From a virus: a DNA stretch of 18,430 nt. The translations under genes were made by a program, and so were the position numbers. Under the pieces are notes generated by a model that ran no database searches, was not told the origin of the DNA, and saw only the letters and a list, made by a program, of their open reading frames with translations. The number at the start of each line of letters is the position of its first letter. The stretch's first letter is position 1. Below, piece after piece: positions 1-18,430 of this stretch. Where the stretch lies: UHGV virus genome UHGV-0119144; one strand, given 5' to 3'.

Positions 1-62
1 GAGCACCTCAAAAACACCATCATACACTAAATCAGTAAGTTGGCAGCATCACCTATCACGGC

Positions 63-272
63 ATGCGAATTGAGCTTAAAGAACCAAATGGTAAAGCCCC
101 GACGAAAGAGCAGATCGCCTGGATGCGCAGGCTTAGAGAGGAAGGTTACTACGTCGTTCTTGCGTATGGTGCAGAACAAGCGATAACCGCCATCCTGGAA
201 TACATGAGCCTTAAAAAGGGTGAGGCTATTGAGCATGTATTGAACGGTGACAAGTGTTTGTACGCTACGTGA
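63..272 (+). CDS. Small protein resembling the C-terminal half of a VRR-NUC (PD-(D/E)xK) domain; probably a truncated remnant
   Basis: 69-aa ORF; IELKEPNGKAPTKEQIAWMRRLREEGYYVVLAYGAEQAI matches the E-x-K ... Q..W ... G..V half of VRR-NUC proteins. The N-terminal Asp-containing half is absent and an in-frame stop lies at 36-38. Confidence 0.35.
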   Translation: MRIELKEPNGKAPTKEQIAWMRRLREEGYYVVLAYGAEQAITAILEYMSLKKGEAIEHVLNGDKCLYAT

Positions 273-288
273 AATAATAAATTAATTA

Positions 289-495
289 GTGCATATGTGT
301 ATCTTTGATACAGCGCACATTAACATCGGGAGAATAATCGTGTCATCCAAGGCTAATTATGAATCGCTGGCATCGATCATGCCGCGTAATGAACAGGAAG
401 CAGATGCTGTAGTGGACCCGGTAATCGCTGAAATGAATGCTCGCCTGGAGGCTGAATTTGCAGCTGAGAATGAACATACCACCCAGGGCGACTAG
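289..495 (+). CDS. Small acidic hypothetical protein (more likely starting at GTG 340 behind GGGAG)
   Basis: ORF in track; acidic, alanine-rich C-terminus; its end overlaps the start of the next gene. No family recognised. Confidence 0.3.
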   Translation: MHMCIFDTAHINIGRIIVSSKANYESLASIMPRNEQEADAVVDPVIAEMNARLEAEFAAENEHTTQGD

Positions 496-1099
496 GACTG
501 TTTTTTGTGTCGGTAGCGGTCCGTCACTCACTCGTGAGGACTGTGCTGCTATAGAAAAAACTGGCTGTTCAATCATCGCGGTTAACAATTCCTGGCAGAT
601 GTTCGATGACATTTATGCCTTATACGCCGGTGATTTGTCATGGTGGAAGCAATACGGATCCACCATACCGGGAGGGAGATTCCGCAAAGTGACAGCCAAC
701 CTGGCGGCGGCGAAATCATTTTCGTTGGAGTACAGGCGATATTGTGGACCGGCTGAAGGGGTTAATAGCGGCGCGCAGGCTATCAGTCTGGCGGCTGAAT
801 CAGGGGCTAAAGTAGTTGTATTAGTCGGCTATGACTGTTCTCTGCAAAACGGCCTTCATTGGCATGGAGCACACCCTCAAGCACTACGGAATCCAACGCA
901 GGTGTCTATTTCAAAATGGCAACAGCAGTTCCTGGATACCCGCAAAAAACACGCAGATTTACATATTTTGAATGCAAGTAGGAGCAGTGCAATTCAATGT
1001 TTCCCAAGAATAAATTTAGAGGCAGTGATCGCGTTATTATCGTCGGCAGTGGCCCAAGCGCCGCAAACTTTGTTGCGCCGCGCGGAGTGCCGATTATAG
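470..1099 (+). CDS. GSGPS-motif protein, paralog A (sialyltransferase GT42 / DUF115-fold-like)
   Basis: Motifs VFCVGSGPSL, IIAVNNSW, NSGAQAISLA, VVVLVGYDCS arranged as in CstII-type/DUF115 nucleotide-sugar enzymes. Alternative start ATG 437. Tandem paralog of the next ORF with similar length (209 vs 208 aa). Confidence 0.5.
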   Translation: MNIPPRATRTVFCVGSGPSLTREDCAAIEKTGCSIIAVNNSWQMFDDIYALYAGDLSWWKQYGSTIPGGRFRKVTANLAAAKSFSLEYRRYCGPAEGVNSGAQAISLAAESGAKVVVLVGYDCSLQNGLHWHGAHPQALRNPTQVSISKWQQQFLDTRKKHADLHILNASRSSAIQCFPRINLEAVIALLSSAVAQAPQTLLRRAECRL

Positions 1100-1623
1100 C
1101 GGTCAATGGGGCCATAGACTGGCTTAACCGCGCTTCTTATTTTTTCACCCTTGATCCATCGCCAGACAATATGCGGCGCGTTGGTCGTGGCCGCCGTCGC
1201 CGTGGTGTTTGTTATTGCATGGCGCTACCCGATGTTAAAGAACGTGAGGTCAGAGACGGCGTTCTGTGCTTCCGTCGTGTGGCTGAGCGCGGCACGGAGC
1301 CAAAAAATACGAATTCTCCCGAGTGGTGGGCGTGGCGCTGGTCCGCACATTTCGGCCTTTGCGAAGATGAGAATGAAATTGCCAGCGGCAATAGTGCATA
1401 TGGTGCTCTGAACCTGGCTTTCCATATCGGATTCAAACATGTCGCCCTGGTGGGCGTTGACGCTACACAAGAACCACGCGTTCACTCCGGCGGCACGCCA
1501 AAAAATCTAAGTCACCTGCCTTTGTTATTCCAGTCTGCGCGTGAACAGATTGACGTTGTTTCATGCGGGAAAATGGGAGGTATTCCGCAGATGACTCTTA
1601 AAGAATGGCTGAAGAATACATGA
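997..1623 (+). CDS. GSGPS-motif protein, paralog B
   Basis: [38 protein letters not shown] motifs collinear with paralog A; overlaps the end of paralog A by about 100 nt; contains an Arg-rich stretch [11 protein letters not shown]. Confidence 0.5.
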
Positions 1624-2297
1624 TGGCACCAACAATTTATCACCGTATCGACGGTACCAAATACAGGAATATCTGGGTTGTTGGTGATCTGCATGGTTGC
1701 TACAACAGACTGATGTCCGAACTCCATCGTGTGGATTTTGACCCGGCGCAGGATTTACTGATATCGGTCGGCGACCTTATCGATCGCGGTACTGAAAATG
1801 TCGAATGTCTGGAACTATTGCAGATGCCCTGGTTCAGGGCAGTGATGGGGAACCATGAGCGGCTGATGATTGATGCGTTAAGTCCAGATGGCAACGTGAA
1901 TAACTGGCTAATGAATGGCGGACAATGGTTCTTCATGCTGGACACTGATCAGGAAATATTAGCCAGGGCGCTGGTGGAGCTGGTAAAGCGTCTGCCCTAT
2001 ATCATTGAGTTGAACACCGGGCAAGAAACTATCGTTATAGCCCATGCCGACTATCCGGATAATGAATACCAATTCGGTAAGGAGGTGCCGCTTTTCAACG
2101 TTGTCTGGGCGCGCGAGCGTATCAGTGATTCGATGGATGATATTGGTGGCGAAATTTCGGGCGCAGATCGTTTTATCTTTGGTCACACTCCGGTGAAAAG
2201 CCCGAAGACATTCTGGAATCAGCATTATATCGATACTGGTGCCGTATTTTGCGGAAACCTGACATTGATGAAAGTGAAAGGTGATGGTGCAGCATGA
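1605..2297 (+). CDS. Ser/Thr protein phosphatase, PPP/calcineurin-like family (lambda NinI / PrpA-like)
   Basis: Signature motifs GDLHG, GDLIDRG, GNHE in canonical order. Likely true start is ATG 1623, overlapping the upstream stop (TGATG). Confidence 0.85.
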
Positions 2298-16655: not shown

Positions 16656-16686
16656 ATGCCCGGTTGATGCCGGGCATAATTTATTG
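16656..16686. terminator. Hairpin between convergent ant and c1; candidate bidirectional terminator
   Basis: Stem atgcccgg / ccgggcat with loop ttgatg, followed by AATTTATT. Confidence 0.45.
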
Positions 16687-17532
16687 CGCGCTTTCGGGGT
16701 TGTCGTTTACTGGCTGCCCCTTCTTGGTTTTACGGCTGCGCGTAACTGATGCGGCTGACTTAACCTTTTTCTCTTCGCGAGTGATGGCAATTTGTTTTTT
16801 TACATTTTCAATATCTGCCAGGCGATATATTTTTGCTTGCGGCCAGCGGTCGCAGATGATCGGTTCTATGGAGTCATAAAGGCTAAATTTTGCTTTTTCG
16901 AATTCACCGTTGATGATAATTCCATCACGGAGAGTTTCATCGCAGATAAACACGCCACACAGTGGCACATGGTAACTAACTGATTTACCATCATTGTAGT
17001 TAGGGCTACTGGAAATGTAGTGGACGCGCAGCATTGTTTCGCTAAAGCCGTGTACGCGCATACGGAATTTTTCATCCTCCGGGTACTGCTTCATTAGCTC
17101 TTTTGTTGCTTCCAGGTTCTCTATGTATTTCGCACTGTGCTCATTGATCCCCGCGCTTTTTTGGATGCGAATGTCCTTATCAATCAGATGAATAATGCGG
17201 CCAGCGGTCATGTTGACGCTGTTCACAGCTTCTGTCTGATAAGTTGTAACCTTACGCACACCGCGAAGGATGTTAGGCACTGGATATAAAATAGTCTTTG
17301 GGATATTGAGGTCTGGGTACTGTTCCAGTTCCCGCGCCATTAAAGTCCATTTATCAATTTCAGCCTGAATGCTGTCAGTTTCTTTGAACGGTAGAACGAC
17401 AACCGGGCGTACAGGACGACCGTCGCTGGCTGTATCAACGTGTTGGGCGCGTGCAACAGCTTTTTTTAGAAAGAGATCCCTGAAGCTGACGAACTCCTGG
17501 TACAGTTGTTCGCCGTAGACATAATTTATCAT
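16681..17532 (-). CDS. c1: P1 C1 repressor of lysis
   Basis: 283 aa, MINYVYGEQLYQEFVSFRDLFLKKAVARAQHV...; strong RBS GGAGGAGG; TATAAT in the upstream intergenic region. Confidence 0.95.
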   Translation of the reverse strand: MINYVYGEQLYQEFVSFRDLFLKKAVARAQHVDTASDGRPVRPVVVLPFKETDSIQAEIDKWTLMARELEQYPDLNIPKTILYPVPNILRGVRKVTTYQTEAVNSVNMTAGRIIHLIDKDIRIQKSAGINEHSAKYIENLEATKELMKQYPEDEKFRMRVHGFSETMLRVHYISSSPNYNDGKSVSYHVPLCGVFICDETLRDGIIINGEFEKAKFSLYDSIEPIICDRWPQAKIYRLADIENVKKQIAITREEKKVKSAASVTRSRKTKKGQPVNDNPESAQ

Positions 17533-17626
17533 TGATCCTCCTCCAGAATTGACATGGTCAATAACGCCCGGCTGAGAAAACCGGTCATTACTGACCTATA
17601 TTATAGAGGGATCAAACGAAAATAAT

Positions 17627-17643
17627 AGATTTATTAGTGCATT
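17627..17643 (-). promoter_or_regulatory. C1 operator-like site (14/17) in the coi-c1 intergenic region (Op99-like)
   Basis: Reverse complement aatgcactaataaatct; an adjacent overlapping partial repeat follows. Confidence 0.5.
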
Positions 17644-17852
17644 TATTGTGAGTCTAACTGGTTAGTTGCCATGAGATATTCGATTGTGTCAGTGAGGTCA
17701 TCCAGGTCGTCTTGGGTGATGCGGTACTCCTGATTGGATATCTTTGAGTAGTGTTCAGCAATGGCGCGGGCTGCGTCGGTTTCGGCAGGGTCTACAGATA
17801 AAGCGTTAGAGCAATGTCTAACGTCGTCGATGGTTGGTTGAATGAAAGCCAT
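17643..17852 (-). CDS. coi: Coi, C1 inactivator
   Basis: 69 aa, MAFIQPTIDDVRHCSNALSVDPAETDAARAIAEHYSKISNQEYRITQDDLDD; directly upstream of c1 on the same strand. Confidence 0.9.
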   Translation of the reverse strand: MAFIQPTIDDVRHCSNALSVDPAETDAARAIAEHYSKISNQEYRITQDDLDDLTDTIEYLMATNQLDSQ

Positions 17853-17971
17853 AATTATGCCTCACTGTATTGACAACACAGAGCCTGAAGCTCTGACCTA
17901 CTGTTTCACCCATGATCCATGCTGGGGTAATCTAACAACATTGCGCTGTGTGTAAGATGAGCAATGCATAG

Positions 17972-18430
17972 GGAAGGTGCGAACAAGTTCCTGATATGAG
18001 ATCATCATATTCATCCGGAGCGCATCCCAGAGGGACATCATGAGCCATCAACTCACCTTCGCCGATAGTGAATTCAGCACTAAGCGCCGTCAGACCCGAA
18101 AAGAGATTTTCCTCTCCCGCATGGAGCAGATTCTGCCATGGCAGAATATGACCGCTGTCATCGAGCCGTTTTATCCCAAGGCGGGCAATGGCCGACGGCC
18201 CTATCCGCTGGAGACCATGCTGCGTATTCACTGCATGCAGCATTGGTACAACCTGAGCGACGGTGCCATGGAAGATGCCCTGTACGAAATCGCCTCCATG
18301 CGCCTGTTTGCCCGATTATCCCTGGATAGCGCCCTGCCGGATCGCACCACCATCATGAATTTCCGCCACCTGCTCGAGCAGCATCAACTGGCCCGCCAAT
18401 TGTTCAAGACCATCAATCGCTGGCTGGCCG
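17972..18430 (+). mobile_element. IS5 left end and 5' part of transposase (continues beyond window)
   Basis: Terminal inverted repeat GGAAGGTGCGAACAAG at 17972-17987; transposase ORF starts at 18040. Confidence 0.9.
18040..18430 (+). CDS. insH: IS5 transposase (InsH), N-terminal 130 codons, partial
   Basis: [37 protein letters not shown]...[37 protein letters not shown]; ORF runs off the window so it is absent from the track. Confidence 0.9.

Follow-up and report, generated by a model that had tools for sequence, protein, structure and literature searches.

A P1-like plasmid prophage contig in probable decay to a plain plasmid: an intact C1 repressor and its operators beside broken lytic functions

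In bacteriophage P1, the repressor C1 binds each of its operators and blocks the overlapping promoter, and the operators themselves are asymmetric 17-bp sites, each overlapping a sigma-70 promoter or following closely downstream of one. C1 is inactivated by Ant and Coi. Lpa is needed for all P1 late promoters, pac, PacA and PacB are needed to start headful packaging, and icd, known from the immI region of P1, encodes a cell-division inhibitor that is costly if unrepressed. P1-like phage-plasmids have been reported to turn into plasmids through gene loss, a relaxase or oriT often being gained (PMC10879196), and a survey of 77 of them placed pmgS and pacA among 21 "extremely conserved" full-length genes (PMC9603915). 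The virus genome UHGV-0119144, a complete metagenome contig of 18,430 bp that was analysed over its whole length (the window), is read here, with a probability of roughly 0.85, as a P1-like (Punavirus, SJ46/RCS47-type) plasmid prophage in decay to a plain plasmid.

By megablast the whole window is placed in the P1 group (Punavirus), with nucleotide identities of 95-98% to P1, P7, SJ46, RCS47, JL22 and vB_EcoM-673R5 (673R5), and it also matches hundreds of plasmids from E. coli, Salmonella and Shigella. Through an exact match to its HsdS protein it proved to be the reverse complement of one entire ENA metagenome contig (ERZ1755946 NODE_586_length_18430_cov_183). The gene order was read from tblastn searches with P1 proteins and from the annotations of relatives, with the RefSeq annotation NC_005856 (Lobocka et al., 2004) as the P1 reference. 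From left to right it comprises pmgM', pmgN-pmgO-pmgP-ppp-pmgQ, pmgR, a pmgS remnant, pap, hsdR-hsdS-hsdM on the minus strand, phd-doc, pdcA-pdcB, lpa', 'pacA, pacB' and 'pacB on either side of an IS2 remnant, an immI-like module, c1, coi, imcB, imcA' and ISKpn26. Both ends lie in insertion sequence (IS) repeats, an IS1 end on the left and ISKpn26 on the right; the contig breaks at these repeats, so that nothing beyond 18.4 kb is visible, and it includes neither the replication and partition genes (repA/oriR, parAB/parS) nor the lytic replicon nor the genes for head and tail. The closest complete relative, plasmid A of E. coli H15 (H15 pA; NZ_CP010179.1), has lost almost all head and tail genes and kept repA and parAB.

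Site statistics and orthology were established, and the lesions were resolved to the base. Packaging is affected by a 1098-bp deletion (junction 12642..12644), delimited by blastn against P1 (compared-stretch positions 11514 to 12612), 673R5 and p1506-2. Lost with it are the 3' half of lpa, LPpac (a late promoter), an IHF site, the sites of pac cleavage and, from pacA, codons 1-264. The truncated lpa (12412..12726, +) keeps, by tblastn, codons 1-78 of 150, after which 26 codons are read out of frame, and its Pfam BPP1_LPA match covers only profile positions 1-64 of 131. The pacA remnant (12645..13043, +; codons 265-397) is out of frame with lpa'; an in-frame lpa-pacA fusion, considered as a candidate, was ruled out by the differing frames of the two remnants. 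The second terminase gene is split by tblastn and blastn into a 5' fragment of pacB (codons 1-130; 13043..13432, +) and a 3' fragment running from about codon 223 to the stop (14138..14956, +), with an IS2 remnant of about 705 bp between them (13433..14137, -) that retains only the 3' part of the transposase (NCBIfam IS2 TnpB positions 71-301). A deletion adjoining this remnant took the rest of IS2 together with 275 nt of pacB. Since tblastn extensions over pacB aa 205-222 and pmgS aa 381-390 were spurious and run into non-homologous DNA, the breakpoints are those of blastn. The broken terminase proposed in the first-pass annotation, which was made from the sequence alone, is borne out in both genes.

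Furthermore, a matrix built from the 10 annotated late promoters of P1 detected no late promoter above 10.7 bits in the window, where genuine ones reach at least 20 and LPpac scores 20.8 bits in both P1 and p1506-2. The marks of a P1-like phage cycle, an intact lpa with late promoters and a pac site with intact pacA and pacB, are absent from the window, and what is found is the combination that characterizes P1-derived defective plasmids, a P1-group backbone with loss of genes essential to the phage cycle. Morphogenesis genes are affected as well. In pmgS (3297..3432, +) an out-of-frame internal deletion of 1127 bp, with its junction at 3338/3339 by blastn against P1 and 673R5, has left about 14 N-terminal and 30 C-terminal codons, and pmgM (54..269, +) is reduced in tblastn to codons 121-192 of 192, its N-terminal 120 codons being gone. 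Both pmgS and pacA, conserved across the 77-element survey, are thus destroyed. The pmgM remnant adjoins the terminal 53 bp of an IS1 (1..53), an exact match to the IS1 copy of P1 (record 23341-23393) and to the IS1 copies of H15 pA; H15 pA shares the pmgM breakpoint, annotated there as "VRR-NUC, missing N-terminus". The lesions in lpa, pmgS and pmgM had not been listed before, and in place of the two IS elements counted at first there are three IS-derived segments: the IS1 end (1-53), the IS2 remnant (13433-14137) and ISKpn26 (from 17972).

The switch that would antagonize C1 is damaged at two points. The ant gene, which encodes an antirepressor with ORF6N and KilAC domains, is a pseudogene (15534..16642, +), correctly suspected as broken: compared base by base with the ant of p1506-2, which is intact at 371 aa, it carries a nonsense mutation, W299* (TGG to TAG at 16429), and, 73 nt further on, a 1-nt deletion at about 16502. 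Its Pfam match to KilAC breaks off at profile position 42 of 108, and the annotation of the gene in H15 pA reads "frameshifted; internal stop". With these two lesions no functional antirepressor is found downstream of icd. As a separate observation, the last 46 codons of ant (16502-16639) are 98% identical to P1 Ant1 and the first 300 only about 50%, a pattern that suggests a recombination joint inside the gene. The open reading frame (ORF) of the other antagonist, coi (17643..17852, -), is intact and 97% identical to P1 Coi. Beyond it, imcB is intact and imcA is reduced to a 3' remnant (17821..17971, -; tblastn and blastn) by the insertion of ISKpn26, an IS5-family element known here from the H15 pA annotation and from its IS5-type inverted-repeat end GGAAGGTGCGAACAAG at 17972; its left 459 bp (17972..18430, +) are present and the contig ends inside it. 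ISKpn26 lies between coi/imcB and the promoter P1coi with the operators Oc1d and Oc1e, which in H15 pA are found beyond the IS, and a polar effect on coi would be expected. Taken together, lpa, LPpac, pac, pacA, pacB, ant, the link of coi to its promoter, pmgS and pmgM have all been hit, so that the loss of lytic competence, asserted earlier along with a packaging defect, is well supported; the element itself is presumably non-inducible.

These lesions recur outside the contig. Three closed plasmids, H15 pA, 2273-PO3 and 22AR0118, have in common with it the lpa-pacA junction, the point of IS2 insertion, the mutations of ant and ISKpn26. The junction between the IS2 remnant and pacB, peculiar to this contig type, turns up again in an independent ENA assembly that is 99.93% identical over 12.1 kb, whereas exact searches for it in genome_contigs, viral_contigs and JGI metagenome_contigs gave no match. 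They are also rare: the lpa-pacA junction occurs in 2 of the 645 PLSDB plasmids that carry the region, the pmgS junction in 2 of 682. The two pairs are not the same plasmids, CP086387 having only the pmgS deletion and CP061751 only the lpa-pacA one, and identity to H15 pA is mosaic, at 97.96% over 54-7651, 99.0% over 8663-14138 and 99.98% over 14137-18430, with 1 base different in the 4.3 kb around c1. Differing pairs and mosaic identity together suggest recombination among P1-like plasmids. The DNA in which the lesions lie is 99.7-100% identical to that of intact relatives (99.7% beside the deletions); lesions so rare in DNA so nearly identical indicate a rare and young defective lineage, and recent decay.

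Against this background the C1 operators of the window were assessed. A search with the consensus ATTGCTCTAATAAATTT, allowing up to 3 mismatches, returns exactly six sites (2997+, 3046-, 4011+, 12325+, 14960+ and 17627-), precisely those listed in the first-pass annotation, against 0.11 expected by chance, and none of 200 shuffles reaches six. A full log-odds weight matrix was built from all 20 C1 operators annotated in NC_005856, Omat being reverse-complemented beforehand to fit the others, and it gives 8 window sites at or above 14 bits, with 0.13 expected. To avoid circularity, an independent matrix was built solely from those 10 P1 operators (Oref, Omat, Ossb, Oc4, OrepL, Orlf, Odmt, Obana, Obanb and O26) whose positions are outside the stretch of P1 to which the window is homologous; it gives 7 sites at or above 14 bits where 0.10 are expected, and no single one of 300 dinucleotide shuffles yields more than 2. 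The operator matches therefore stand up to a weight-matrix scan against shuffled sequence, the comparison that had been named as able to overturn them. As a control in real DNA, about 80 kb of non-P1 cargo of H15 pA contains zero matches at or above 14 bits, and the P1-derived parts of that plasmid contain 14. Three further candidates, 3886-3902 (10.9 bits), 7505-7521 (8.9) and 1623-1639 (8.6), were rejected, their scores lying within the range of the best shuffle matches (mean 10, maximum 19), and in the matrix scan no match above chance falls inside the hsd cassette, which is thus left without a credible C1 site. While the matrices were being built it was seen that the P1 RefSeq record annotates Omat (2628-2645) on the wrong strand and as 18 nt, and that NC_005856 holds two unannotated matrix matches, at 1485-1501 (19.2 bits, between cre and c8) and at 17166-17182 (15.8 bits); a matching 21-bit site lies in the interval downstream of cre in H15 pA (21197 of the compared stretch).

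According to coordinate mapping and the P1 feature table, the dispersed matches are the known C1 operators of P1, as judged by position and sequence: seven sites coincide with annotated ones (Oppp, OpmgRa, OpmgRb, OpmgT, Olpa, Oc1ab and Oc1c) and are identical to them or differ by 1 base. The leftmost, at 279..295 (-), with the sequence TATGCACTAATTAATTT, is the orthologue of Oppp (Op83); it stands downstream of PpmgN at the same position as in P1, is identical in 673R5, matches the consensus at 13/17 and scores 19.5 bits with the full and 21.8 with the independent matrix. It had been put forward one base to the left, as a weak 12/17 candidate at 278-294, and is in fact a strong site; the other weak candidate, at 17799-17815, is indeed 12/17. 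OpmgRa (Op86a; 2997..3013, +), recovered by consensus, matrix and P1 position, overlaps the -35 of PpmgR and, with OpmgRb (Op86b; 3046..3062, -), identical to P1, brackets that promoter. OpmgT (Op88; 4011..4027, +) matches the consensus at 16/17 and lies at the pmgT promoter, and Olpa (Op94; 12325..12341, +), again identical to P1, overlaps the -35 of Plpa (TTGCTA-16-TATTAT, 12339-12366). At c1 the bivalent operator Oc1ab (17616..17643), identical to P1, overlaps the c1 promoter (Pc1) and is made up of Oc1b (17616-17632, +), which had been overlooked, and the overlapping Oc1a (17627-17643, -). Oc1c (17799-17815, -), inside coi, reaches only 2.9 bits with the independent matrix and stands solely by its identity to the annotated Oc1c of P1. 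With the operator at 14960, nine operator sites are present in total.

The repressor gene c1 (16681..17532, -) is intact and encodes 283 aa that are 99.3% identical to P1 C1 (NF041318 equivalog, 611.6 bits against a cut-off of 500). Sites at the same promoters and a full-length repressor agree with the proposal that several operons would be under one repressor as in P1, and by homology C1 would be expected to bind and repress at the window sites. C1-controlled genes that are still intact include the pmgN-pmgQ operon, pmgR, icd and coi. Part of the operator network is vestigial, because several operators now control dead or missing genes: lpa is truncated, pmgS deleted and pmgT replaced by hsd.

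The operator at 14960..14976 (+), CTTGCTCTAATAAATTG, is a strong match (15/17; 23.0-23.6 bits) with no P1 counterpart at its position, pacB directly preceding c1 in P1. Its placement relative to a promoter read from the sequence, TTGTGT-17-TACATT, has the geometry of P1 Oc4 relative to P2c4, and it heads a module of 1.7 kb. An isrK-like small RNA or leader with a terminator follows (15051..15129, +; Rfam RF01394, 60.2 bits against a gathering threshold of 50), then a C4 antisense RNA gene (15174..15261, +; Rfam RF01695, 75.4 bits against 45) and an intact icd-like cell-division inhibitor gene (15316..15537, +; NF033153; 78% identical to P1 Icd), after which comes the ant pseudogene. The C4 loops, CCUUUGAC and GUCUCAA, with complementarities of 7 and 8 nt, are complementary to the upstream targets b1 (15094) and a1 (15077), both within the isrK-like leader, and with downstream targets at 15297 and 15266; of these, b2 (15297) covers the Shine-Dalgarno ribosome-binding site of icd and a2 is at 15266. 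The a1/b1/a2/b2 layout of P1 immI is thereby reproduced in a second module. Module and operator are conserved in 673R5, H15 pA and p1506-2, and the intact p1506-2 additionally carries the canonical immI next to kilA-repL, from which it follows that 14960 serves as operator to a second immI module, a paralogue typical of the sublineage.

Some side observations belong to this module. The Rfam isrK family is a Gifsy-associated, Hfq-binding small RNA of Salmonella, and a terminator-like hairpin with a T-run at 15108-15131 closes the isrK-like leader. A 39-aa "ash family protein" annotated by RefSeq in relatives largely overlaps the C4 RNA gene (window 15178-15297; 15440-15559 of the H15 pA stretch and 5351-5470 of that of another relative), and in this call an RNA gene was probably mistaken for a protein-coding one.

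Functions that would serve a plasmid are in a different state. The phd-doc toxin-antitoxin pair (10467..11068, +) is intact, with Phd and Doc 100% and 99.2% identical to their P1 counterparts and supported by the corresponding Pfam matches, and the restriction-modification (R-M) operon (4276..10290, -) is full length in all its genes by profile and structure-sequence matches: hsdR 4276-7392 (1038 aa), hsdS 7514-8731 (405 aa) and hsdM 8728-10290 (520 aa). Both systems had been described as intact, and they are. HsdR scores 2280 bits over residues 1-1038 against EcoR124I HsdR (PDB 2W00), HsdM matches TIGR00497 with 648 bits, and HsdS aligns over 1-405 to EcoR124II HsdS (334 bits), its two Methylase_S domains corresponding to two target-recognition domains; these matches assign the system to type IC, EcoR124 family. 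The hsdS recognition sequence presumably differs from that of EcoR124. The cassette takes the exact place of P1 pmgT-humD, with the pmgT leader on one side and the phd promoter on the other; P1 homology stops at 4200, 6 nt short of where the pmgT start codon would be. It is found between pap and phd in the isolated phage 673R5 too, and its presence in isolated phages means that it is not in itself a sign of domestication.

From these results a scheme can be proposed in which the route from repression to virions is interrupted at each level. An intact, autoregulated c1 would make the P1 repressor, and C1 would keep all operator-bearing promoters shut, here those of the pmgN-pmgQ operon, pmgR, the former pmgT promoter, the lpa stub, the second immI module and c1/coi. 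The switch would be cut by the nonsense mutation and frameshift in ant and by ISKpn26, which parts coi from its C1- and LexA-controlled promoters; derepression would be hard to trigger because both C1 antagonists, Ant and Coi, are disabled. Late transcription would be cut by truncation of Lpa at codon 78, no Lpa-dependent promoter being left in the window, packaging by the deletion of the pac site and pacA codons 1-264 and by a pacB that is split and 275 nt short, and morphogenesis by the deletion of pmgS and the truncation of pmgM. Even if the element were derepressed, its late genes would not be activated and its DNA would not be packaged. The functions that would serve a plasmid, namely phd-doc addiction, the EcoR124-type R-M system and c1, are kept at full length. 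In this scheme c1 would keep icd silent, which may help to explain why c1 is retained.

Several points weigh against reading the contig as a prophage in decay. Only 18.4 kb can be seen. Off the contig lie repA and the par genes, the lytic replicon and the genes for head and tail, whose state is extrapolated from H15 pA; that relative is close but not the same (98-100% identity), having another hsdS and an IS2 that is complete. It is by homology that binding of C1, activity of the promoters and non-inducibility are deduced. Many "putative morphogenetic" genes (pmgN-R, ppp, pap) are intact, so that the decay is partial, and at a coverage of 183x an intact co-resident P1-like variant could complement the element in trans.

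The strongest competitor to ongoing decay, if still an unlikely one, is adaptive domestication, in which selection would have kept c1, R-M and toxin-antitoxin as a defence and maintenance island and disabled Ant and Coi, yielding an uninducible, permanently immune plasmid. The derepression switch has been struck repeatedly, by two independent inactivating mutations in ant and by the IS that parts coi from its promoters; the 7.35 kb taken up by hsdRSM, phd-doc and c1, 40% of the window, has been spared by all of the roughly 8 lesion events, an outcome for which uniform placement gives a rough chance of 0.6^8, or about 0.02; and the lineage is found in several hosts and samples. These events are, however, not independent, the IS2 insertion being linked to the adjacent deletion and one of the two hits in ant having fallen in a gene already dead, and a survivorship filter applies, in that any surviving plasmid has intact maintenance genes. 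Moreover, each deletion is found in just 2 of about 650 P1-like plasmids, surrounding DNA 99.7-100% identical to that of intact relatives leaves no time for visible selection and no power for dN/dS, and the R-M cassette is normal variable-region cargo of functional phages such as 673R5. The term "domesticated" in the first-pass annotation accordingly goes beyond the evidence, which, with rare lesions in DNA nearly identical to that of intact phage-plasmids, indicates recent decay. A narrower form, a "locked" repressor for which selection disabled Ant and Coi and kept c1, the operators, the C4 RNA and icd, is improbable; if it were true, the repressor with the type IC R-M system and phd-doc would constitute a plasmid-borne island of anti-P1 immunity and defence.

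It is equally doubtful that the operators are inherited leftovers that no longer regulate anything, C1 not being made or its targets being irrelevant. Several of the controlled genes are indeed dead or absent (lpa' truncated, pmgS deleted, pmgT replaced, ant a pseudogene), and divergence is too recent for conservation to prove function. On the other hand, c1, its promoter and the bivalent Oc1ab are intact, promoter and Oc1ab being identical to P1, C1 still has intact genes to control (the pmgN-pmgQ operon, pmgR, icd and coi), and an unrepressed icd would be costly. A helper-dependent, satellite-like element packaged by a co-resident P1-like phage is very unlikely: high identity to functional phages would permit complementation in trans and rescue by recombination, but with the cis-acting pac deleted specific packaging is impossible, which leaves only uptake at the level of generalized transduction or recombination, and functions of the satellite type were not seen in the window. 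Lastly, that the lesions are assembly artefacts, or a chimera of co-existing P1-like variants hiding an intact element, is scarcely credible in spite of a short-read metagenome contig with IS repeats at its ends and mosaic identity to H15 pA (97.96%, 99.0% and 99.98% in three segments), since the lpa-pacA, pmgS, ant and ISKpn26 lesions are also found in closed complete isolate plasmids, and the junctions shared with these and with the independent contig (99.93% over 12.1 kb) rule it out.

The remaining genes of the window are close to their P1 counterparts. The pmgN-pmgO-pmgP-ppp-pmgQ operon (340..2995, +) shows 94-99.5% identity in tblastn over the full length of each P1 protein, and pmgR (3077..3295, +) is intact and 100% identical to P1 PmgR, also by tblastn. 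Intact as well are pap, a putative phosphatase (3505..4008, +; tblastn, Pfam HAD_PNKP), and pdcA with pdcB (11052..12323, +; tblastn, DUF968).

Around the R-M cassette further details were observed. With 673R5, hsdS aligns only over its central 187 bp (8110-8296), the target-recognition domains being different, and the exact 405-aa HsdS is found in at least 9 ENA metagenome contigs. A 28-codon ORF with a good ribosome-binding site, MNTAFKIIMAAIYFWLFSITFGGIVAHG (4111-4197, +), is the first frame downstream of the C1-controlled pmgT promoter; its hydrophobic 28-aa product is kept in P1 (compared-stretch position 5683), 673R5 and H15 pA with single amino-acid changes only, and it is absent from the annotation of the P1 record. 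P1 homology stops 3 nt past its stop codon. Because the minus-strand hsd operon replaced pmgT-humD, the C1-repressed pmgT promoters (4011-4280) now face the 3' end of hsdR. Speculatively, these promoters, once derepressed, might give antisense transcription of the R-M operon, and as a side possibility the pmgT promoter, convergent with hsdR and preceding the 28-aa ORF, might couple R-M expression to the state of the repressor. H15 pA, for its part, has gained IncA/C-type mobI, a MobH relaxase, ars, ttr, lactate-utilisation and encapsulin genes, and a heat-resistance locus with sHSP20, ClpK, YfdX, KefB-GI and others.

Much of this is already known, the operators being annotated in P1, hsd between P1 flanks being noted in the P1 record and the extra immI being present in published phages, and the contig is of little importance beyond its correct annotation. 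It provides a clean, base-resolved example of decay in which switch, late activator, packaging and morphogenesis are lost, and repressor, addiction and restriction are kept. Automated detection of phage-plasmids in metagenomes would misclassify it as a phage, owing to c1 and the terminase fragments.

Compared with P1 (NC_005856), the window has the same repressor (99.3% at the amino acid level), the same 17-bp asymmetric operator and the same promoter overlaps, whereas its OpmgT faces the hsd cassette and not pmgT, its Olpa drives a truncated lpa and its OpmgR drives pmgR without pmgS; Oc1d and Oc1e are cut off by ISKpn26 and the contig end, and there is an extra operator at 14960 in the second immI-like module. 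Among the type IC loci of EcoR124I/II and EcoDXXI, EcoR124I has an HsdR practically identical in length and sequence to that of the window, while the target-recognition domains of HsdS differ from those of EcoR124II; notes in the P1 RefSeq record point out that the DNA around the EcoDXXI and R124/3 hsd loci is homologous to the pap/OpmgT and phd flanks. Elements of the SJ46/RCS47/673R5/p1506-2 type, 96-98% identical to the window in nucleotide sequence, have the same type IC hsd cassette between pap and phd and the same isrK-C4-icd-ant module with its C1 operator between pacB and c1, but they keep lpa, pacA, pacB and ant at full length (p1506-2, for example), where those of the window are deleted, split or mutated. 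H15 pA, a member of the published class of P1-like phage-plasmids turned plasmid, with mobI/mobH (Pfeifer & Rocha, 2024; PMC10879196), shares the pmgM breakpoint, the pmgS and lpa-pacA deletions, the IS2 insertion point, the ant mutations and the ISKpn26 in imcA. The window differs from it in the extra deletion next to IS2, which is complete at the same point in H15 pA, in a full-length, two-domain hsdS where that of H15 pA is half-size (208 aa), and in the IS1 end at the pmgM breakpoint, its first 7.6 kb being just 98% identical. The contig is thus a new and slightly further decayed case of the published conversion of phage-plasmids to plasmids.

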